From positions 2,808-66,807 of the forward strand of contig JAGGUN010000022.1 in assembly GCA_021158465.1 (NCBI GenBank): a DNA stretch of 64,000 nucleotides, read 5' to 3'. The translations under genes were made by a program, and so were the position numbers. The notes below the pieces were generated by a model. That model saw only the letters and a list, made by a program, of their open reading frames with translations, did no database searches and had not been told where the DNA came from. This document shows, piece after piece, positions 6,843-45,707 of the stretch (positions within the stretch are counted from its first letter, which is position 1; every line of letters begins with the position of its first letter). The DNA comes from a bacterium. Lineage in GTDB: Bacteria > UBP14 > UBA6098 > 4484-93.

Positions 6843-7628
6843 TTAGATAAGTTTTCCGAGGTAAACTGGTGTGACCATGCCTTCAAGGAAGTAGCGGTTA
6901 TCCTCATAGGTAATGAGGAGGTTCTCTGGCTTTCTGACAAGTATGATAGCGGGGAATTCTATCTTTCCAAGTTTTTGAGCTACAACCGCTGACGCAACTG
7001 CACCCGTGCCGCAAGCAAGGGTCTCATCCTCTATACCACGCTCATATGTCCTTATCGCGGCTGTGTGAGTATCTCTTATCTCCACGAAATCCACATTGAC
7101 CCCATCGGGTGCAAACTCCTTGTGGTTTCTGATGAGCCTGCCTACCCTCTTCACATCCACTGACCCGATATCTGCAACGAATACCACGGCATGGGGTACG
7201 CCCGTATTTATATAGAAGATGGTGAAACTTTCCTCCTCTATTGCAAGCTGAATGCCTGGACGGTAGTCCTTAGGCTCTGGCATCTCGACGCAAACCTTCT
7301 TTCCCTTTACTGTGGCAGATATGACGCCGGCGTCTGTCTCGACTGTAAGGCTGTTCGGAAAGCCACACTGGACAGCGAAGTAGGCAACTGCTCTCGCACC
7401 GTTTCCACACATAGGAGCCCTCGAACCGTCAGGATTGTAATAGAGCATACGGATGGTTGCGGTGTCTGCATTCTCGAGGAGGATGAGCCCATCAGCACCG
7501 ACTGAAAGCCGCCTCTTGCAGATTTTCCTTGCAGACTCTGATGGGTTGGAAACGATATTCCCCCGGTTATCGATGAGGATGAAATCGTTGCCGCTGGCAG
7601 AAAGCTTCATAAACTCAATTCCTTGCAT
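6843..7628 (-). CDS. dapF: Diaminopimelate epimerase
   Basis: SGNDF, GADG, MCGNGAR, TGVPH, NVDF, RTYERG and TLACGTG motifs; ATG at 7628. Confidence 0.95.
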   Translation of the reverse strand: MQGIEFMKLSASGNDFILIDNRGNIVSNPSESARKICKRRLSVGADGLILLENADTATIRMLYYNPDGSRAPMCGNGARAVAYFAVQCGFPNSLTVETDAGVISATVKGKKVCVEMPEPKDYRPGIQLAIEEESFTIFYINTGVPHAVVFVADIGSVDVKRVGRLIRNHKEFAPDGVNVDFVEIRDTHTAAIRTYERGIEDETLACGTGAVASAVVAQKLGKIEFPAIILVRKPENLLITYEDNRYFLEGMVTPVYLGKLI

Positions 7629-8115
7629 CGCATTCCCTCTTAAGTTCCACAAGTGAGACGGTTATGCTGTCGATATATCCGTCCTCTCCCACGGGGACGG
7701 TTCCTTCAGTCCGTTTCCCTTTGATAGTGACCCTTGCCAATTCGATTCCAAGAACAGATGAGATGTTTTCCCGCATTGCCGGGATATGCTCTCTGAGGAC
7801 AGGTTTATCGGTTATGACAACAGAGTCCAGATTTACAACATTCGCACCGCAGGAGAGAAGCATATCTTTTACCCTCTCAAGCAAAACGAGACTTCTTACC
7901 CCTTGGAGCAACTCATCGGTGTCAGGGAAGAGGGTTCCTATGTCGCCCAGATTTGCTGCTCCCAGAAGTGAATCTATTACCGAGTGGACGAGGCAGTCTC
8001 CGTCAGAATGCCCAAGAAGTCCATATCTGAACGGGATTTCTACCCCGCCCAAGATGAGCGGTTTTCCAGAAACGAAGCAGTGTCTGTCGAAGCCGATGCC
8101 AACTCTCAAATTCAT
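7615..8115 (-). CDS. ispF: 2-C-methyl-D-erythritol 2,4-cyclodiphosphate synthase
   Basis: RVGIGFDRH, LILGGV, GHSDGD, GDIGTLFPDTD. Confidence 0.95.
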   Translation of the reverse strand: MNLRVGIGFDRHCFVSGKPLILGGVEIPFRYGLLGHSDGDCLVHSVIDSLLGAANLGDIGTLFPDTDELLQGVRSLVLLERVKDMLLSCGANVVNLDSVVITDKPVLREHIPAMRENISSVLGIELARVTIKGKRTEGTVPVGEDGYIDSITVSLVELKRECDARN

Positions 8116-36481: not shown

Positions 36482-39208
36482 CTATTTGATATAGATGAGC
36501 TTTGTGCTTATACTTTCCGCTCCGTCCTTCAGGATGGCAATGTAGGTCCCGGTGGGTGAGTTGCTCGCGTTCCAAGAGGCTGTTTGCCAGCCGGATGATG
36601 GTATGACAGGAACTGAGGCAACCTTCTCACCGGTGATATTGTAGATGGATAGACTGGGGGAGTTGCCCGTGGAGTAGAACCTTATTGAGACTGTCGAGTT
36701 GAACGGATTGGGGTATGCTGTTATAACGGGTGACGAGGGGATCATTGGGAAATCCACCTCTTTTATCTCTGAGAAATCGTATCCGACGAACTCGAGCATC
36801 TTCCTGACGAACATCCATCTCGGAGTGAACGAAGGAAGCTCATTGTGAATACATTCTATCCCGAACCCGAGATAGAATACCGTGTTGTTGAGTGTGATAT
36901 CGACATATCTCGTTGCGGCAAAGGAGCCAGAAGTGTCCCCTTCATAGGTGAGGATACCAACGGCACCGTCCGTTGGGGTGCATCCGGATGGACTATCTGG
37001 GGAATATGCTCCACCGGAGAGAACGATACGGATGCTATCTGTTACTGGGTCGCCCTCGATTCCCGACAGTATAACCCTGCCAGCATCGTCTACCGTGTGT
37101 TCGGCGTGGATTATATCTGAGAATAGGGAGGTCCCTCCCATATCCTCGCCGATGTTCTCTCCTGATAGTATTAGAACCTTGTTCCCTTCGTTGTAAAAGT
37201 TGGTGATAAGTGAGAGCTCTGTTTCCGTTATCGATGTGTCACGGACAGTTCCTGTGAACCAGATGACCGTGCGGTATTTGTTCAGCTCCTCCTGAGAGAT
37301 AGCCCCTTGGTTCTTGTTCCATATATCGTAGACTAACCTGTTGGTCAGAAGCGCCGTATTGTAATACGATATGTTTGTTGTATCGGTCTCAGAGCCGTTA
37401 TAGACGAGGATGTCCGGTCGTCCTATCATAAATGTGATATACCCATAGTTGATAGTTCCCTGCTCGGTTGTTAGCCGCCATCTAAAGCGAGCTTTATGTG
37501 CTGGCATATCGGACAGCATCCGAAAGCGTATAGGTGCAGAGTCATTCCTGGCAGTGTCACCGGGGGCGATATCCGGAAAGTCAACATCACCTGTTATGAT
37601 CTCCACGGTTGTGTCGGCTGTTGTCAGATGGAGCGTTGCACCTGTTCCCATCATCCAGCCAGGTTCGTTCGCGAATGAGAGGATTATTTCGCCTGTCTCC
37701 CCTGGGTCGACCCTACCATCGAGGTTACCGTCGATATCGGTGCTTTGATACCCTACGAATGAGAGTTCAGGGTATATCACCTGCCCGATAGCCTTGAATA
37801 CATTCACGCGTCCCCTGCCAAGTCTTCCCTCATATCCCGGGTTGAGGGAATCTATGGGGTCGGCAGAATCAAGCAGTCTGTTGTATACCCAATGGTTTGA
37901 TGAGTCGGGGAAATATGCTCGGACAAGTGCGCCACATCCCGCAGCAACAGGTGATGCCATGGATGTTCCGTCCCAGCTCGTGAAGGAGTCGACTGGGATG
38001 GTGCTGTATATCGAGACACCAGGTGCGGATAGTTCTATCCAGCTGCCATAGTTGGAGAAGTATGCCTTGTGGTCGTTCTCGTCGGTTGCGGCAACGGATA
38101 TGACATGATTAAAGTTAGCAGGATAGAATCGTGCTGAAACATCATCATTGCCAGCACCACCGACAAGTAGAACGCCTGCTGCCCAAGCGTCCTGACAAGC
38201 CTCGTTCTCGTCCGGGTCGGGGTGGGAGCTGCCGTAGCTCATGTTTATCACCTTTGCGCCCATATCGATTGCATACCTAAAACAGCGCAGAAGGGCGATT
38301 GTCTGCATACCACCAAGGGTGCCGTCGTTCGGGTAGTAGCCTGCTCGCAGGCACATAAGCTTCGAGCTCCAATTGCACCCTGCCATACCGTATCCGTTGT
38401 TCCCAAGCGCTGCCATAATCCCGTTTGTGTGTGTCCCGTGTCCGTCCAGTATAAAATCTGACGGGTCACTGTCGGGATCGTCGCCATCCTCGATAAGTAC
38501 ACCGTCGTTGTATGCGTCTGGGGCGTTATCGACGAAATCGTATCCGATGAGGTCGTCGATGACCCCGTTGAGGTCGTTGTCGAGCCCATCGAAATCATCG
38601 ACATCGAACGGGACACCATCACCATCCAAATCCTCGCCAGGGTTCACCCATATGTTCGGATAGAGGTCGGGATGACTCCAATTGACACCAGAGTCGATCC
38701 CCGTTATTATAACGGAGCTATCACCTGTTGTTGTCCCCCAGGCTCGATCAAGTCCGATTTTCGGTGCCCACCACTGCCGGGAATAACCAGGGTCATCGGG
38801 TGTTACCGGAAGATACAAAAGCGGGATAATATAGTCAGGAAGAGAATATTTTACGAACGGTAGCTTCTCAAACCGCTTTGCAACTTCCGCAGCATCAAAC
38901 CTATCAGGGAAGTGGAAAACAACCCTGTTTGACCAGTGAGCCCATTTCTCCTCGAACCTGCCCAGAGACCCGAGAAGCGGCTCCCAGTCGTATGCCTCAA
39001 TCTCTTCCAGGAGTCTATCCAGCTCGGGAATGCCTGAGCGAACCACACCATCCTGAACGGTCAGTTTCTCCTGAATATCGAGGGAATAGTCGAAAGCGAC
39101 GCGGACGACCCCCGGCGTGTATCTATCCGGCGGTGAGGGGTTATTGGCGTATATGGGTAAAGCAAGAAGCACCAAGGTTAGAACGGTGGCAGTGACGCTC
39201 TTTTGCAT
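36482..39208 (-). CDS. Secreted S8 (subtilisin-like) serine protease with T9SS CTD
   Basis: Catalytic triad GIDSG / GHGTH / GTSMASP; Ca-loop DxDxDG inserts; AYPNPFNS...KLIYIK CTD; ATG 39208. Confidence 0.92.
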   Translation of the reverse strand: MQKSVTATVLTLVLLALPIYANNPSPPDRYTPGVVRVAFDYSLDIQEKLTVQDGVVRSGIPELDRLLEEIEAYDWEPLLGSLGRFEEKWAHWSNRVVFHFPDRFDAAEVAKRFEKLPFVKYSLPDYIIPLLYLPVTPDDPGYSRQWWAPKIGLDRAWGTTTGDSSVIITGIDSGVNWSHPDLYPNIWVNPGEDLDGDGVPFDVDDFDGLDNDLNGVIDDLIGYDFVDNAPDAYNDGVLIEDGDDPDSDPSDFILDGHGTHTNGIMAALGNNGYGMAGCNWSSKLMCLRAGYYPNDGTLGGMQTIALLRCFRYAIDMGAKVINMSYGSSHPDPDENEACQDAWAAGVLLVGGAGNDDVSARFYPANFNHVISVAATDENDHKAYFSNYGSWIELSAPGVSIYSTIPVDSFTSWDGTSMASPVAAGCGALVRAYFPDSSNHWVYNRLLDSADPIDSLNPGYEGRLGRGRVNVFKAIGQVIYPELSFVGYQSTDIDGNLDGRVDPGETGEIILSFANEPGWMMGTGATLHLTTADTTVEIITGDVDFPDIAPGDTARNDSAPIRFRMLSDMPAHKARFRWRLTTEQGTINYGYITFMIGRPDILVYNGSETDTTNISYYNTALLTNRLVYDIWNKNQGAISQEELNKYRTVIWFTGTVRDTSITETELSLITNFYNEGNKVLILSGENIGEDMGGTSLFSDIIHAEHTVDDAGRVILSGIEGDPVTDSIRIVLSGGAYSPDSPSGCTPTDGAVGILTYEGDTSGSFAATRYVDITLNNTVFYLGFGIECIHNELPSFTPRWMFVRKMLEFVGYDFSEIKEVDFPMIPSSPVITAYPNPFNSTVSIRFYSTGNSPSLSIYNITGEKVASVPVIPSSGWQTASWNASNSPTGTYIAILKDGAESISTKLIYIK

Positions 39209-39244
39209 CTTCGCTCCTTCATTTCCGGGACACAATTTTGGTTA

Positions 39245-39272
39245 AAAATAGATATTTTTTCGTTTTTGTCAA
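39245..39272 (-). promoter_or_regulatory. Promoter for the S8 protease-mtnA unit
   Basis: TTGACA-N16-TATTTT. Confidence 0.5.
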
Positions 39273-39287
39273 ATCATAAATTTTGAC

Positions 39288-39316
39288 TTGACTTTTATTG
39301 GAATTGAAGGGATATT
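39288..39316 (+). promoter_or_regulatory. Possible promoter for thiL (leaderless)
   Basis: TTGACT-N17-GATATT ending 6 nt before the GTG start. Confidence 0.4.
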
Positions 39317-39322
39317 TCCGAT

Positions 39323-40294
39323 GTGGAGAGGACAATTGGAGATATTGGTGAGTTTGGTCTAATTGAGTTTATCAGGGATAGGCTCGGTGAACAGGGGCTT
39401 GTTGTCGATGTTGGGGATGATGCGGCGGTTGTTGCGACGAAGCCGGGTGATTTCGTTGTTGCGACGGTAGACGATATTGTCCAGGATGTTCACTTTACGC
39501 TTGATTATCCTCCTCGCTCTGTCGGGTGGCGGGCGGTTGCATCATCCTCGAGCGATATTGCCGCTATGGGTGGGAAGGCACGGTTCTTCCTCATCTCATT
39601 TGTCGCGCCGGAGGAAACGACATTTTCCTGGTTTCGTCGGTTTCTGAGCGGGGCAACCGATTTTGCCAGGAGGTTCAATCTTGCCCTTGTCGGTGGGAAT
39701 ATATCGAACGGAGGCAGCATCCGCATAAGCACAACGACGCTCGGGACAATCCCTCCGGGGCATATCAAGAGGCGATCTGGTGCGAAGGTCGGAGACATCA
39801 TCTATCTGACAGGTGCTATCGGTGGCTCGCAGGCAGGGAGGATTATTTTTTCCGAGACAAGGAATCCTCGCCTGCGACTTGCAAAAAGGCATCTTTTTCC
39901 TGTTCCACGCCTTGTCGAGGGCAAGATACTGGGAGCTGTATCCGCTGTCTCCGCGATGATAGACATCTCCGATGGTTTCCTGCAAGACCTCGGGCATATT
40001 CTTACCAGCTCCGATGTCGGAGCGTACATCGATATCGATAGTATACCTATATTCCCAGGGGTTGACCGGTTCTGCCGGGAGCGGGGGCTCGAACCGATTG
40101 AATTCGCTCTCTCATCCGGCGAGGAATATGAGCTGATATTCACAGCAGAGGAGAAATACGCCTCTGGTATCGAGGAGGAGATAGGGAGAGAGAAGGTTAT
40201 TCCCATTGGTGAGATAGTTGCAAAGAAAGGGATATTTGCGAAGCGAGGCGGCAAGCTGATAAAACTCTCACACGCAGGCTGGAGACATTTTTGA
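39323..40294 (+). CDS. thiL: Thiamine-phosphate kinase
   Basis: GEFGLI, GDDAA, SDIAAMG, LVGGN, RSGAKVGD, IDISDG, GEEYELIF, GWRHF. Confidence 0.94.
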   Translation: MERTIGDIGEFGLIEFIRDRLGEQGLVVDVGDDAAVVATKPGDFVVATVDDIVQDVHFTLDYPPRSVGWRAVASSSSDIAAMGGKARFFLISFVAPEETTFSWFRRFLSGATDFARRFNLALVGGNISNGGSIRISTTTLGTIPPGHIKRRSGAKVGDIIYLTGAIGGSQAGRIIFSETRNPRLRLAKRHLFPVPRLVEGKILGAVSAVSAMIDISDGFLQDLGHILTSSDVGAYIDIDSIPIFPGVDRFCRERGLEPIEFALSSGEEYELIFTAEEKYASGIEEEIGREKVIPIGEIVAKKGIFAKRGGKLIKLSHAGWRHF

Positions 40295-40344
40295 GCTATC
40301 CTTCTGCGCCGGTGAATTGGAAACCCCAGAATTCCGCTTTTATC

Positions 40345-40373
40345 TTGACAGAGCATCCGATGAACCATATCTT
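40345..40373 (+). promoter_or_regulatory. Promoter upstream of the cassette array (Pc-like position)
   Basis: TTGACA-N17-TATCTT, followed by a TACCTTT-ggaa-AAAGGTA inverted repeat at 40381-40398. Confidence 0.55.
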
Positions 40374-40470
40374 GAAGTCATACCTTTGGAAAAAGGTAAG
40401 TAGAATGCCTGCTGTCGCCTTGAAAAGATTTAAAATATCAAAACTCATTAGCCATTATAGGAGATGAAAA

Positions 40471-41409
40471 ATGGGAGAAAAATATATAAAAATGAAGGAA
40501 GTAACTCACAAAGATTATCTGGAATTTATCAAAGATAAAACATCTGTAATAATCGAAGATGTAGAGATAAAACTTCAAAAGAACTGGAACATAAAATCTT
40601 ATGCTCCACCTAACGATTATACTCCAGAACGAACAACGGTATGGAGCTTCCCTGATCGTGGTGATTGGGCAACCCATAAGGGGAATTATAGAGGGAACTG
40701 GTCTCCATATATACCCAGAAATCTTATTTTGAAATATACTCAGAAAGGGGATTGGGTTCTTGATCAGATGATGGGTAGTGGAACAACTTTGGTAGAAGCA
40801 AAGTTGTTGGAAAGAAATGCTATCGGAGTAGATATAAATCTTGATGCTGTTATGGTAGCGCGAGATCGTTTAAATTTCTCATATAACCCACTTTTCCCTG
40901 AATACAAAGAACCCATAATAAAAACATACTGGGGAGATGCAAGAAATTTAGATAAAATTGATGACGAAAGCATCGACCTCATCGCCGCACATCCACCATA
41001 TGCAAGTATAATATCGTATACAAAAAATAAAAAATTGAGCGATGACCTGTCGCAATTACCATTTGAAGAGTATCTTAAAGGAATGCGAAAAGTGGCTGAG
41101 GAGGTTTTTAGAGTATTAAAACCCGGTAAAATATGTGCAATCCTGATAGGAGATACAAGAAAACACAAGCACTATGTGCCTATTGCTTTTAGGGTTATGC
41201 AAGCATTTCTTGATGTAGGCTTTATTCTGAAAGAAGATCTTATTAAACTGCAGTGGAATATGAAAAGCACGAGAGAAAGGTGGCGCGCAAAGGAGTATGA
41301 GTTTTATCTCATCGCTCACGAGCATATCTTTGTTTTTAGAAAACCGGAGAGTGAGAAAGAATATAAAAAATACAAATTTAGCGTGAGGTGGAGGAATGGA
41401 AATAAATGA
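40471..41409 (+). CDS. SAM-dependent amino (N4-C/N6-A) DNA methyltransferase, TRM11-like family
   Basis: Motif I VLDQMMGSGTT precedes motif IV HPPY; ILIGDTR; HEHIFVFRK. Confidence 0.85.
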   Translation: MGEKYIKMKEVTHKDYLEFIKDKTSVIIEDVEIKLQKNWNIKSYAPPNDYTPERTTVWSFPDRGDWATHKGNYRGNWSPYIPRNLILKYTQKGDWVLDQMMGSGTTLVEAKLLERNAIGVDINLDAVMVARDRLNFSYNPLFPEYKEPIIKTYWGDARNLDKIDDESIDLIAAHPPYASIISYTKNKKLSDDLSQLPFEEYLKGMRKVAEEVFRVLKPGKICAILIGDTRKHKHYVPIAFRVMQAFLDVGFILKEDLIKLQWNMKSTRERWRAKEYEFYLIAHEHIFVFRKPESEKEYKKYKFSVRWRNGNK

Positions 41410-41959
41410 TCTCAAAGAGCTTATGACATTCAGAAGTCAAGGTGAAATTAGAAGACCTATAAGTGTAATAAAGGTGAATGATAATTTCATTTTGGCAATA
41501 TACAAGGGAAGAAAAGGACCAGCAGATATTCTAATCAGATATAGACAAAAGTTGAAAAATGGTGAATGGTCAAACATCAGAACGCCCAAGCATATTCATT
41601 GGACAGTAGATATTTTAATAAAAATGTTTCAAGAAGAGCATTTAACAAAACAATTCATAGACGAACTGATGAAAATTTGGAAAAAGGAAATCCAACCTAT
41701 GACTCAAAATGAGAGAGATAGACTTGAATTAGATGAATTGTTAAACTATGATAAAGAGACTCTTGAGCGATTTAGGGAGCTTAGTAAATATGGTGAATAT
41801 AATGTAAGATTTCTTTTATTGCTCGCAAAATTGCTAATGCTTCAGGAGAGAACAAATTATCCAGAAGGACAATTATTTCAAACCCTGTTAAAAAAGTTGA
41901 AACAAGGGGAAGATATTTTCAGTATTTTGCAAACAGCAACTCTAAGGAGGTTAAGATAA
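41396..41959 (+). CDS. Hypothetical protein coupled to the methyltransferase (candidate restriction/defence effector)
   Basis: 14-nt overlap with the MTase, GGAGG SD; RTPKHIHW and QERTNY motifs; no family recognised. Confidence 0.7.
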   Translation: MEINDLKELMTFRSQGEIRRPISVIKVNDNFILAIYKGRKGPADILIRYRQKLKNGEWSNIRTPKHIHWTVDILIKMFQEEHLTKQFIDELMKIWKKEIQPMTQNERDRLELDELLNYDKETLERFRELSKYGEYNVRFLLLLAKLLMLQERTNYPEGQLFQTLLKKLKQGEDIFSILQTATLRRLR

Positions 41960-42016
41960 GATGTTCGGCGATGGTAGGCACTCTGAGGTGCTTTGCACCT
42001 TGCCCCTATTCGGGTC

Positions 42017-42095
42017 ACTTAACACGGGCTATACGGTTCACTTCGTTCGCCCAAATCGGCTTACGCCGACTTCGTATAGCCCGATACCGTTATTT
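42017..42095 (+). repeat. attC site 1
   Basis: R'' ACTTAAC (fits RYYYAAC), 11-bp perfect stem CGGGCTATACG/CGTATAGCCCG, inner hairpin TCGGC-ttac-GCCGA, R' GTTATTT. Confidence 0.8.
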
Positions 42096-42129
42096 GCAAT
42101 GTGCATTATGATGAAAGAGATGTGAGATA

Positions 42130-42621
42130 ATGAAAACCGAGGTGGGAGAATATATTGTAGGTGCATACTTGAAGATCATCAAAGGATGTGATTTTGTCGA
42201 TTATAATGTTAGACCCCCAGGTGGTGGACTCGAAGGGTTAAATGAATTAGATGTTGTGGGATTAGATTTCAAAAATAGAATCGCTTATCTATGCGAGGTC
42301 ACTACTCATATAAGGGGGCTTCTATATAAAGATAACAAAACTACTGTCGAGAGAATAAAAACAAAATACGACAAACAGAAAAAATATGCCGATAAATACC
42401 TTTCGGATTTTCCTAATCGGTATTTCATGTTCTGGTCGCCAGTCGTCCCTAAAGGTTATATTACTAGCGAGCTCGAAAAAATTGATGGACTAGAGTTAGT
42501 CATTAATGAAAAATATGCACGATGCATAGATGAATTAAGAGAAAAAGCAAAAGAACTCACTAATGATGTTGGAAATCCATTTTTCAGGATGCTTCAAATA
42601 TTAGAACATTTGAGGAAATAA
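42130..42621 (+). CDS. Cassette-encoded hypothetical protein, probable PD-(D/E)XK nuclease-like fold
   Basis: N-terminal GE..V..YL helix, NELDVVG and LCEVTTH spacing like (P)D...ExK cores; flanked by attC sites. Confidence 0.6.
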   Translation: MKTEVGEYIVGAYLKIIKGCDFVDYNVRPPGGGLEGLNELDVVGLDFKNRIAYLCEVTTHIRGLLYKDNKTTVERIKTKYDKQKKYADKYLSDFPNRYFMFWSPVVPKGYITSELEKIDGLELVINEKYARCIDELREKAKELTNDVGNPFFRMLQILEHLRK

Positions 42622-42638
42622 TAGAGTATGCACACAGC

Positions 42639-42726
42639 AGATAACAGAGCGCATCTGGCTACGGTGCTTCGCATCTCTGCCCAAATCCTGCTTCGTAGGA
42701 CTTCAGATACGCTCGGAACGTTTGGT
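42639..42726 (+). repeat. attC site 2
   Basis: R'' AGATAAC, stem GAGCGCATCTG/CAGATACGCTC, GCCCAAATC..GACTTC core shared with site 1, R' GTTTGGT. Confidence 0.78.
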
Positions 42727-42773
42727 GGCATCGCGGTTTTGAGTTTAAAGGAAGAAATAAAAGGAGGAATAAA

Positions 42774-43346
42774 ATGGCTCTAAAGCCTCCCAGCAGATTG
42801 GTCAAGACCGTTCGGGAGCTGATATATTGGCTATATGCTGAACTTATAGCAAGAGCTGCAGGTTTTGAAGGTAACTATGGGTTTGTGATTTCCCGCTATA
42901 AGAAACTAAAATCTGGAGAAATGAAATGGTCATCGTCTATACGGGACCGTCAGAAGGAATGGGAGAAAGGCAAAGTGTGTGTATATTGTGGTGCAACGAA
43001 AAACCTTACTATAGACCATATAATCCCCGTCTCCAGGGCAGGTGTAGACCCAAGAGTAAGAAACCTTTTAGATTCGTCGGACAACTGCGTTTGGGCGTGT
43101 AAGAAATGCAATAGCAGCAAGGGCGATCGTGATATCTTTGAGTGGTATGGCAAGGAACGTGTAGACGAAATTCCCAAGCTTGTAATTTCAAAATTTTTAA
43201 AGATATCATACAAGTTGCATGAAACTCAAGGCACCCTTGATTTGGAGGATCCAAATATGGATGGCGTTCTGGATATCTACGATTTGGGGGTTGTAATCAC
43301 TCACTTGATTTCTAAATTATCTGTGGAACCGGGGAAAAAGGTTTAG
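42774..43346 (+). CDS. HNH endonuclease
   Basis: CVYCG...TIDHIIP.SRAG...N.VWACKKCNSSKG; AGGAGG SD. Confidence 0.88.
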   Translation: MALKPPSRLVKTVRELIYWLYAELIARAAGFEGNYGFVISRYKKLKSGEMKWSSSIRDRQKEWEKGKVCVYCGATKNLTIDHIIPVSRAGVDPRVRNLLDSSDNCVWACKKCNSSKGDRDIFEWYGKERVDEIPKLVISKFLKISYKLHETQGTLDLEDPNMDGVLDIYDLGVVITHLISKLSVEPGKKV

Positions 43347-43485
43347 ATTCTTTACGCACGACTTTCCAGCGTCTCCATGAGTGATTGCAATGAGTCAGTG
43401 TGAGGCTTTGTCTTTGTGAGACTGAAATTGAGAGATAGTGGCATCACCATCCGCACCGTGCGGAGATTACATCAATAAAAAAATT

Positions 43486-43558
43486 TGGAGCTTACGGGGT
43501 TCGAACCCGTGACCTCTTGTCTGCCAGACAAGTGCTCTCCCAGCTGAGCTAAAGCCCC
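43486..43558 (-). tRNA. tRNA-Ala (GGC)
   Basis: GGGGCTTTAGCTCAGCTGGGAGAGCA-CTTGT-CTGGCAG-ACAAG-AGGTCACGGGTTCGAACCCCGTAAGCTCCA; G3:U70 pair; CCA not encoded. Confidence 0.96.
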
Positions 43559-43571
43559 AAACCGAAAATTT

Positions 43572-43599
43572 AATATATCAATTTTTCGCAGAAAATCAA
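43572..43599 (-). promoter_or_regulatory. Promoter for tRNA-Ala
   Basis: TTGATT-N16-TATATT. Confidence 0.5.
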
Positions 43600-43608
43600 G
43601 AGGAAAAT

Positions 43609-44862
43609 TTATGTGTTCATCGACTGGAGGAACTGCTTGTTGTTCTTGGTCTTGGTTATCTTCTCGAGCAGGAACTCCATCGCCTCTACCGGGTTCATAT
43701 CGGATAGGATTTTTCTCAAAAGCCATACGCGTTTCAGCACATCCTTGGGTAGAAGGAGTTCTTCTTTTCTCGTTCCTGAGCGGTTGATATTGATTGCTGG
43801 GAATACCCTTCGGTCGGATAGTCTGCGGTCGAGTAGGATTTCCATATTCCCCGTTCCCTTGAACTCCTCGAATATTACCTCGTCCATTCGTGAGCCGGTC
43901 TCGATTAGTGCCGTTGCGATGATGGTAAGTGAGCCTCCTTGCTCGATATTTCTGGCAGCACCGAAGAACCGCTTTGGTCCGCGGAGTGCATTCGAATCGA
44001 TGCCGCCCGTCAGTATCTTCCCGCTGTGTGGAACGACAGTATTGTATGCCCTTGCAAGCCTGGTTATGCTGTCTAAGAGTATCACCACATCGAACCTCTG
44101 CTCGGTCAACCTCTTTGCCTTCTCAAGCACAATCTCCGCCACATGCACATGCCTGTCTGGTGGTTCGTCGAATGTTGATGATATAATCTCTGCGTCGACC
44201 GTTCGCTTCATATCAGTTACCTCCTCGGGGCGCTCGTCAATCAGAAGCACAATGAGGATAGCCTCCGGATGATTTTTTAGGATGCTGTTTGCTATCTTCT
44301 GGAGGAGCACGGTCTTCCCGGCTTTCGGCGGTGAGACGATGAGTCCACGCTGTCCGAACCCGATGGGTGTCAGGAGGTCCATAATCCGCATCGAAGGGTC
44401 GTTATTATCGCTCCGCTCAAGCTGTATCTTCCTCTGGGGATACAGTGGTGTTAGGTTATCGAACAATATCCTGTTTTTTGCCGCTTCGGGGTCAACGAAG
44501 TTCACCTTTTCTACATGGAGGAGTGCAAAGTACCGTTCTCCCTCCTTTGGTGGGCGGATGTTCCCGGATACTGTATCACCGACCTTCAGGTCGAAGCGCT
44601 TTATCTGCGATGGCGAGATGTATATATCATCAGGTCCGGGAAGGTAGTTGTAGAGTGGGGAACGCAGGAATCCATATCCTTCGGGCATAATGTCCAGTAC
44701 ACCTTCGCCGATAATCACCCCGTTGTTTTTCGTTTCTGCCTCAAGGATCCGGTAGATGAGGTCCTGCCTCGGGAGTGTGGATGGATTCTCCACTCCCAGC
44801 CCCTTTGCAAGCTCCATTAGTTCCTGGATACCCTTGGATTTGACCTCCGTCAGATTGATCAT
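43609..44862 (-). CDS. rho: Transcription termination factor Rho
   Basis: [68 protein letters not shown]. Confidence 0.97.
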
Positions 44863-45707
44863 TGATTAACCCCTTTTAAGATTTTAATTTCATTGAGTGC
44901 TTTCTCTGCAAGTTCCTTTGAGGGGGCTTTGCCGTGCCATTCTACTGCGTCCTCCATAAAGGAAACACCCTTGCCTTTTATCGTTTTTGCGATGATAGCA
45001 ACTGGCTTTCTCTCTATTCTCTTTGCTTTGTTGAATGCGGAGAGTATCTGTTCGTAGTTGTGCCCATCTATAGTTATCGTCTCCCATTGGAACGCCTTGA
45101 ACTTTTCATCGATTGGGTAGATATTCTTTACCTCTGGTAGGTGTCCGTCTATCTGGAGGTTGTTGTTGTCCACGATGGCATAGAGGTTATCGAGTTTGTA
45201 GTGTCCGGCGGTTGCGGCTGCCTCCCAAACCTGACCTTCCTCAAGCTCGCCATCTCCGAGGATGCAGAAGACCTGTGATGACTTCTTTCTAACATATTTT
45301 AGACCGATAGCGGCGCCTGTTGCAACTGATAGCCCTTGTCCGAGTGAGCCAGACGAAACCTCAATCCCGGGGAGCCCCTTGTCCTTTGCTGGATGCCCTT
45401 GGAGGCGAGAGCCAAGTTTACGAAGGGTCAAAAGTTCCTCCACGGGAAAGTATCCGCTCCTTGCAAGGACAGAGTAGAGCGCTGGACAGGCGTGTCCTTT
45501 GGATAGTATCACTATGTCCCTGTCCTCCCAGTTAGGGTTGTCCGGTTTGTGCCTCAGCACCGAGAAGTAAAGCACTACCAGAACATCTGTAATGGAGAGC
45601 GATCCTCCTGGATGTCCAGAACGGGCTTCTTTTGTCATGCGGATGATGTCCGATCGAACGGCTCGAGCAATTTGTTTTAGCTTACCGATGTCATTTATTC
45701 TTTCCAA
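44859..45707 (-). CDS. Transketolase N-terminal (TPP-binding) subunit
   Basis: [49 protein letters not shown]; 282 aa split form. Confidence 0.92.

Follow-up and report, generated by a model that had tools for sequence, protein, structure and literature searches.

Two probable integron cassettes with restriction-modification and nuclease genes in an integrase-less array of a hydrothermal-vent bacterium

[quoted passage not shown] Compact nucleases and restriction-modification (R-M) genes are among the integron defence cassettes described in bioRxiv 10.1101/2024.07.02.601686 and 10.1101/2024.07.02.601719, where cassettes were tested against phages in Vibrio and Escherichia coli. Archaeal integrons have been described from 75 metagenome-assembled genomes (MAGs) (bioRxiv 10.1101/2022.02.06.479319; PMC9668308). 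Here, we describe a small array of integron-type cassettes in a 64,000-nt stretch of DNA (the window), positions 2,808 to 66,807 of contig JAGGUN010000022.1 in GenBank assembly GCA_021158465.1; coordinates below are counted from the first base of the window. The source organism is a hydrothermal-vent bacterium that belongs to a small and little sampled class.

The locus shares several features with CALINs: two co-oriented attC-type sites each close a promoterless unit of open reading frames (ORFs), there is no intI in the sequence as assembled, and the cassettes are found elsewhere with other neighbours. It differs from them in having two sites, against the mean of almost six, and in its attC family, which has a lopsided spacer and was scored by a covariance model of our own. 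With the defence cassettes cited above it has in common the compact nucleases and R-M genes, although those cassettes were phage-tested, whereas the present ones are known from sequence. The archaeal integrons provide a further parallel, because homologues of the cassette genes and of the adjoining HNH gene are 72-94% identical and some are archaeal, and because sites of the family flank a fragment of one cassette gene, ORF3, in two Methanosarcinales MAG contigs. What the locus offers is a set of clean, well-bounded integron cassettes that lie outside an integron in a vent lineage with hardly any sampling, together with evidence that these cassettes move among bacterial and archaeal phyla within vent and sediment communities. 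CALINs, R-M cassettes and cross-domain sharing of cassettes are already in print, and the knowledge of integrons is unchanged by these observations.

Two attC-type sites and the cassettes that they close

The window is part of an 85.6-kb contig in a 2.04-Mb draft genome (54 contigs, 97.6% complete). The comparison set consisted of 40 related genomes, searched at the DNA level; 26 genomes belong to the class, and 14 control genomes were used with the integrase model TIGR02249. In the labels used below, G000 is the genome under study, the other G labels are relatives, C denotes a contig, L a fetched locus and X a metagenome run.

Between a thiL-like gene and a tRNA-Ala gene, the GC content is 31-44%, as compared with approximately 52% in the flanks. 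This interval contains four co-oriented genes, which encode a DNA methylase, a protein of 187 amino acids (aa) (ORF2), a 163-aa protein (ORF3) and an HNH endonuclease. Two of the gaps between these genes are richer in GC and hold the attC sites, both on the plus strand. Site 1 (42017-42095) extends from the R'' core ACTTAAC (42017-42023) to the R' core GTTATTT (42089-42095), and site 2 (42639-42726) from AGATAAC (42639-42645) to GTTTGGT (42720-42726). Each site folds into an imperfect hairpin whose base is formed by AAC...GTT, with an unremarkable folding energy (z of -2.6 to -2.8 for site 1 and approximately 0 for site 2). An earlier note on this DNA had pointed out two attC-like sites at exactly these positions, and covariance models now support both. 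Model R1 was built from seven aligned sites, including those of the window, and model R2 from 21 sites, none of them from the window. R2 gave 72.9 bits (E-value, 8.4e-15) for site 1 and 83.8 bits (E-value, 2e-17) for site 2 and, over the whole 64-kb window, detected nothing more at E-values up to 1; its seeds had been gathered with R1, itself seeded from the window sites, so that this test was not fully blind. No third site was found downstream of the HNH gene or upstream of the methylase gene in model searches with the filters off.

Sequences 76-84% identical to site 2 were found in four other genomes among the relatives, the sites of G023, G003 and G027 being 80-84% identical. When seven sites from five genomes were aligned, the TAAC...GTT ends were invariant, and RNAalifold predicted 20 pairs, 11 of which showed compensatory changes; the L-box stem of site 1 departs from the family consensus through such changes. 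Among the 21 non-window sites (alignment A5), 87.8% of the cells pair, a share that falls to 27-44% once partners are shifted by 1-3 columns; both sides have changed in a compensatory manner in 18 of the 24 modelled pairs, and none of 500 shuffles reached any of five pairing measures. Covariation is concentrated in the L-stem (10/12 pairs), while the AAC/GTT box, with its four pairs, is nearly constant, AAC and GTT being kept in 18-19 of the 20 distinct rows of the family alignment. This pattern of variation, conserved in structure and free in sequence, is that of attC.

Cassette 2 (42090-42720, 631 nt, plus strand) comprises ORF3 and attC site 2. It starts at the same GTTAT in three contexts, namely the window, contig C93 of G025 and locus L036, and the upstream sequence is unrelated each time. 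G025:C93 matches the window with 91% DNA identity from 42089, the position of the G in GTTAT. In L036, a MAG contig, the ORF3 gene lies between two family sites; the cassette begins with GTTATCTGCA and ends with GCAGATAAC, as in the window, and the R' that follows ORF3's own attC, GTTATCTGC, is a 9/9 complement of its R''. A 582-nt contig of run X5, with a depth of approximately 650, matches the window from 42088 onward, after a different attC end. The same start and end in unrelated contexts support a once-circular cassette spanning 42090-42720, as had been proposed in the earlier note. The signature on which that proposal was based, a 15/18 inverted repeat (42089-42106 against 42628-42645), is present, but 3.4 kb of this region contain 77 inverted pairs, so that alone it does not go beyond chance; its weight derives from its position and from the cross-genome comparisons rather than from the repeat itself.

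Cassette 1 (approximately 40396-42089, 1694 nt or so, plus strand) carries the methylase gene, ORF2 and attC site 1. At its left end is a residual R' core, GGTAAGT (40395-40401, plus strand), one base off GTTAAGT, the exact complement of the R'' of site 1. The similarity of independent copies of the cassette starts at approximately 40398 in L058 and 40414 in L050. In a contig of X5, the GTT of an attC end is joined straight to AAGTAGAAT, which corresponds to window positions 40398-40406 (joint 42722->40412). The methylase and ORF2 unit is also followed by a family attC in the metagenome loci L048 and L050. Comparison of the loci places the point of cassette exchange at G|TT, with the same cassette present in other arrays.

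By the published criteria the locus is a CALIN, because its two sites are separated by 544 nt and no integron integrase was found. We consider it very probable that the locus consists of two integron cassettes, one with an R-M pair and one with a small nuclease, in an integrase-less array between housekeeping genes. The earlier note had described a cassette array of four genes, rich in methylase and nuclease functions, beside tRNA-Ala; this description holds for two cassettes with three genes and is not supported for the HNH gene, which has no attC downstream of it, either here or in its close homologues in two other contexts. As judged from the boundaries, each cassette would once have been a circle with its attC at the closure, which an integron integrase opened at the G|TT of R'. 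The pair now lies outside any attI and was probably inserted at a GTT-type secondary site by an integrase that has since gone. Without an integrase in the cell, the array would be unable to rearrange.

Genes of the cassettes and the adjoining HNH gene

The first gene of cassette 1 (40471-41409, plus strand) encodes a 312-aa type II DNA methyltransferase of the permuted N6_N4 class. Its match to PF01555 (5.4e-30; 105 bits, cut-off 26.7) is permuted, in that the C-terminal part of the profile matches the N-terminal part of the protein; the PADLOC model MTase_II (PDLC03376) matches over the full length (6.8e-77), and the PDB sequence matches are N4-cytosine and N6-adenine DNA methylases. ORF2 (41396-41959, plus strand) overlaps the methylase gene by 14 nt. 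It belongs to no Pfam, NCBIfam or PADLOC family, and its 282 homologues, from Bacteria and Archaea, are all unnamed. Although its AlphaFold2 model is of high quality (predicted local distance difference test score, pLDDT, 90.8), Foldseek found no convincing fold match in the PDB (best E-value, 0.2), and the ESM Atlas yielded no usable match. The best row of a wide VIA-align search (Z, 6.1) covered the helical half only and was within the noise for helical models, and a row suggesting a likeness to the restriction glycosylase R.CcoLI (Z, 4.5) carries no weight; both candidates were set aside.

Type II R-M systems with the DpnII-type arrangement are served by adenine methylases of the D12 and N6_N4 classes. 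ORF2 resembles the restriction enzymes of such systems in adjoining a methylase, with permuted N6_N4, standard N6_N4 or D12 enzymes as partners, and differs from them in that it matches no restriction-enzyme model of Pfam or PADLOC and has no solved fold. By tblastn, ORF2 was found beside the methylase family of the window in 27 of 80 metagenome loci. All 13 loci with a full-length close ORF2 homologue (at least 69% identity; L048-L060) have this methylase family directly upstream. Ten of the 53 remaining loci were chosen for having room on both sides, and a Pfam search identified a methylase immediately upstream in every one (7 standard N6_N4, 3 D12). Because one small protein accompanies three methylase architectures, ORF2 is likely to be the cognate restriction endonuclease of the cassette-1 methylase, and the chances are somewhat better than even that it founds a restriction-enzyme family whose fold is yet unsolved. 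The D12 partners point to adenine methylation, and the cassette methylase probably produces N6-methyladenine. The R-M pair would cut unmethylated incoming DNA, from which the methylase would protect the host, and the likely benefit of the array as a whole would be restriction of incoming DNA. At 187 aa, and with a methylase for a neighbour wherever the adjoining gene was identified, ORF2 is an enzyme lead as a probable new restriction enzyme.

Partial copies of ORF2 were also observed. In L066, L067, L075, L099 and L124, only the last 112 or so residues are present (82-93% identical) and the methylase is absent upstream; a family attC follows in three of these contigs (L066, L067 and L075). 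These contigs look like truncated R-M cassettes.

ORF3 (42130-42621, plus strand), the only gene of cassette 2, likewise has no Pfam, NCBIfam or PADLOC family. It has 1561 homologues; identity is 69-90% across the 120 that were listed, which include bacterial and archaeal proteins. Copies sharing 72-94% identity are present in MAGs under the labels Elusimicrobia, Atribacterota, Omnitrophota, Actinomycetota and Dehalococcoidales, and several archaeal groups also have copies. The AlphaFold2 model (pLDDT, 82.8) was compared with the PDB by Foldseek, and the top matches were Cdn1, NucS/EndoMS, Card1, SfsA and Nt.BspD6I, with E-values of 1e-3 to 0.1; the first six rows had a probability of 1.00, with E-values of only 1e-3 to 7e-3, and every top match was a PD-(D/E)xK nuclease. 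On the basis of this model, ORF3 is predicted to be a stand-alone nuclease of the PD-(D/E)xK fold, in line with the superfamily's alpha-beta-beta-beta-alpha-beta core and its acidic residues on strands two and three. Among 26 sequences, E39, D41 and K79 are invariant and E56 is nearly so. Its role may be that of a defence nuclease that is modification-dependent or in some other way minimal. This 163-aa cassette nuclease is a second enzyme lead, with its many homologues and its high contig depth in one vent metagenome (X5). In two Methanosarcinales MAG contigs, an ORF3 fragment (residues 1-83) lies between two family attC sites (L047, 1940-2319; L045, 1-313), and in a Dehalococcoidales MAG (L042, 8001-8492) an 81%-identical homologue contains one in-frame stop codon.

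The fourth gene, a neighbour of the array, encodes a 190-aa HNH endonuclease (42774-43346, plus strand). Its HNH domain (PF01844, 1.9e-10; 41.2 bits, cut-off 21.4) spans residues 69-119, and it has weak PADLOC matches to PtuB and PDC-M01B. Apart from these and the generic MTase_II match of the methylase, the genes of the interval matched no named defence system. The HNH protein has 399 homologues, Asgard archaea among them; the listed homologues of ORF2 and HNH at 72-94% identity also include some named as from Archaea. The HNH gene occurs in 3 of the 26 class genomes and at one locus among viral contigs, and no attC stands beside it in three contexts (the window, G008 and the viral contig). 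It is a further horizontally mobile gene and may be a third cassette that has lost its attC or a resident gene that received the cassettes in its leader. In G008 (contig C4, L129), an 80%-identical copy stands alone between purL and tRNA-Asp. Both in the window and in G008, the gene thus follows a gene of the AIR synthase family (thiL or purL) and precedes a tRNA gene (Ala or Asp) on the opposite strand, a shared placement that may reflect coincidence or a target preference.

Search for an integrase and alternative readings

When the genome was searched with TIGR02249, nothing exceeded the 265-bit cut-off, and only two Xer-like recombinases on contig C48 were detected; all 14 control genomes likewise showed only Xer-like genes below the cut-off. 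The absence of intI noted earlier for the window is borne out, and it extends to the 97.6%-complete draft genome. True integron integrase (IntI) genes were found in 4 of the 40 relatives (G039, G032, G037 and G007), each on a contig of approximately 3 kb. Only G007 belongs to the class, where 25 of the 26 genomes have no IntI over the cut-off. A tblastn search with the four true IntI proteins against the fetched loci found nothing full-length beside any site-bearing locus. In G025:C93 (623-1000; L014/L035), a 126-aa ORF that immediately precedes the ORF3 cassette and is co-oriented with it consists of an unrelated N-terminus fused to approximately 53 C-terminal residues of a tyrosine recombinase, 57% identical to the C-terminus of a true IntI. 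This ORF may be a remnant of an integron integrase.

Several observations weigh against reading the locus as a pair of integron cassettes of this make-up. No integrase is linked to these sites: the four IntI contigs (L005-L008) carry no site of the family, and G007, the sole class genome with IntI, is also without one. The family departs from the anatomy of textbook attC, whose L'' arm bears extrahelical bases and whose central spacer is unpaired (PMC5027507). Here, the unpaired spacer is lopsided, measuring 1-2 nt on the R''/L'' arm and 5-6 nt on the L'/R' arm, and extrahelical bases on the '' arm are irregular, an extra L'' base being present in, for example, G014:C101 and absent from the window sites. 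Compared with the published R cores RYYYAAC/GTTRRRY, ACTTAAC fits fully, but AGATAAC, GTTATTT and GTTTGGT each deviate from them at one or two degenerate positions. A search of window positions 39000-45000 against Rfam (E-values up to 10) gave no attC match, the tRNA being the only real one, and the R2 alignment A5 was fitted to structure, which favours the pairing counts. The left boundary of cassette 1 reads GGT rather than GTT. In G010, which belongs to another family of the class, the R-M pair (78% DNA identity) occurs without an attC of the family; the R-M genes therefore also travel in other ways. As for ORF3, the E-values of its fold matches are weak, and the lysine of the (D/E)xK motif is missing, the sequence being E56-V57-T58 with T nearly invariant among the 26 sequences; K79 might substitute for the canonical lysine. 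Finally, the assembly is confirmed by metagenome runs that possibly represent the source samples themselves and are thus no independent proof.

The lack of a linked integrase could mean that the organism does have one, perhaps along with a larger array, on DNA missing from the assembly or the bin, and that the cassettes could still be shuffled. The genome is a draft in 54 contigs, and draft genomes are reported in PMC9024848 to overestimate CALINs; one further site in this genome (on C33) and a decayed copy (on C15) lie at or near contig ends, suggesting that the assembly breaks at repeats; the true IntI genes elsewhere are on short contigs that are easily lost in binning; and the recombinase remnant of G025 stands beside an ORF3 cassette. 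We nevertheless regard this as unlikely, because housekeeping genes border the array to the left and to the right within an 85.6-kb contig, which excludes an adjacent intI, and nearly all class genomes have no IntI over the cut-off. In addition, no joint that skips a cassette was seen in the contigs of X1-X3, although contigs cannot show rare variants. A different answer to the same difficulty is that the family, with its lopsided spacer, conserved inner hairpins and small copy number in each genome, turns over without a canonical integrase and is recombined by another enzyme, such as a tyrosine recombinase of the Xer type. Family sites occur in 11 of the 26 class genomes, with IntI in one that has no such sites, the four IntI-bearing contigs carry none, and the congeners G003 and G023 hold different cassettes. 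This proposal, which if true implies recombination by an enzyme other than IntI, appears improbable to us. We give even less credence to the view that the sites are a lineage-specific palindromic repeat, such as a repetitive extragenic palindromic (REP) sequence, a miniature inverted-repeat transposable element (MITE) or a terminator, in a tRNA-adjacent island brought in by an ordinary integrase. The island does abut the 3' end of tRNA-Ala, a classic island target, and the non-textbook spacer, the unlinked integrase and the lack of an Rfam match would agree with it. However, there is no integrase gene in or near the island, and a direct repeat of the tRNA 3' end at its far side was not found among the 20 largest of 34 direct-repeat families, the nearest candidate, D9, being located past the tRNA 5' end. 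Copies of the attC-type repeat are scarce, 1-4 in each of the 11 class genomes that have them, and at every locus examined they follow an ORF in the same orientation. Moreover, the same gene is found with a different repeat copy upstream, the switch falling exactly at GTT, as is predicted by cassette exchange and not by REP sequences.

The way in which the two cassettes arrived bears on the HNH gene. If HNH and the promoter-like site upstream of the array were resident downstream of thiL, and a circle of two cassettes was inserted at a GTT in the HNH leader, the HNH gene without attC and the promoter just upstream of the array would both be explained. Deleting 40396-42720 places the promoter-like site approximately 70 nt from the HNH start, with GTT at the junction. 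The HNH gene is without attC in all three of its contexts, and its depth equals that of the genome, whereas much higher abundance in these metagenomes was seen for the attC segments in each of the four runs and for the ORF3 cassette in X5. Integron integrases reportedly act at genomic sites other than attI, termed attG, which would also suit this explanation. On the other hand, the HNH gene is itself low in GC (40-43%) and sporadic in the class, no relative shows thiL and HNH adjacent, the left junction reads GGT, and the similarity to the intergenic region after thiL in G001 is marginal (local score of 12, reached by 76 of 2000 shuffles). This sequence of events is possible but doubtful.

Flanks, promoter-like site and further members of the family

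To the left of the array, and outside the element, is the thiL-like gene (39323-40294, plus strand; Pfam AIRS, 1.7e-23; AIRS_C, 1.1e-11); to the right is tRNA-Ala(GGC) (43485-43559, minus strand; detected by ARAGORN; Rfam tRNA, 67.2 bits). The genes around the array also include rho. Contigs from three runs of one study cover the locus. One X2 contig spans 39300-40713, bridging thiL into the methylase gene, and a second spans 41915-44900 with one difference from the window. In G001, the only genome of the same genus (80% complete), thiL has 95% DNA identity and the match stops at the stop codon; it is followed by a different gene, absent from G000, and then by the contig end. The earlier note had held that the four genes, if conserved in order as core genes across relatives, would speak against a cassette array. 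The interval is not conserved, since G001 has another gene after thiL and the R-M pair and HNH sit elsewhere in relatives. The inference in the note that the array is fixed is likewise not supported by the comparison with G001.

A promoter-like sequence, TTGACA-N17-TATCTT (40345-40373, plus strand; 10/12 matches), is located outside cassette 1, 22 nt upstream of its boundary. This site, named in the earlier note as the promoter that heads the array, is present and is the best in the region, but the 10 promoter-like sites found there equal the 10.2 expected from shuffles. Transcription of the array would most likely start from it. Among RNA runs, none was listed as containing 40300-43480. The idea that the promoter region is ancestral, shared with G001, was dropped, as the intergenic similarity is too weak (76/2000 shuffles). 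A 15/17 AT-rich direct repeat (40425-40441 and 43565-43581) encloses the four genes and the tRNA; it is probably due to chance, one copy being inside the conserved leader of cassette 1.

In G010, the R-M pair (C5, L029) has flanking genes different from those of the window, and a 201-aa gene (7504-8109, minus strand) precedes and overlaps it. This gene was found in none of the 80 metagenome loci and has no PADLOC or NCBIfam family.

Co-oriented arrays with sites after ORFs were found in G027:C29 (3 sites), G003:C38 (3 sites) and G023:C24 (2 sites). G027 has two type II methylase cassettes. G003 and G023, which have no IntI over the cut-off, belong to the same genus, and their arrays (L024, 6317-8889, and L023, 620-2767, respectively) have the same flanks, consisting of 146-aa and 429-aa genes, with different cassettes. 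Both contain a ParE cassette, which is followed by 201-aa and 168-aa genes in G003 and by a 309-aa weakly Mrr-like gene in G023. In runs X1-X3, the summed contig depth is 169-370 over the attC segments, as compared with approximately 8-13 over the genes next to them; the sites are therefore shared by many other contigs of these communities.

The genome under study carries further sites at C33:10062-10146 (L033; 59.8 bits with R1 and 79.7 with R2) and C36:77079-77163 (L034; 32.4 and 57.1 bits). These two share the same L boxes, and each follows a small ORF of unknown function; the C33 site is approximately 130 nt from the end of its 10279-nt contig. A marginal fifth match is located at C36:1624-1707. 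Contig C15 (1-1200, L133) starts with a gene of low GC content, the product of which is a type II restriction enzyme matched over its full length (PADLOC REase_II, 6.7e-84); a partner methylase gene, if there is one, would be situated past the contig end. The restriction-enzyme gene is followed by a decayed attC (approximately 1085-1200), in which the 3' half is kept and the L'' partner and GTT are lost, and then by a gene for glutamine-dependent NAD synthetase.

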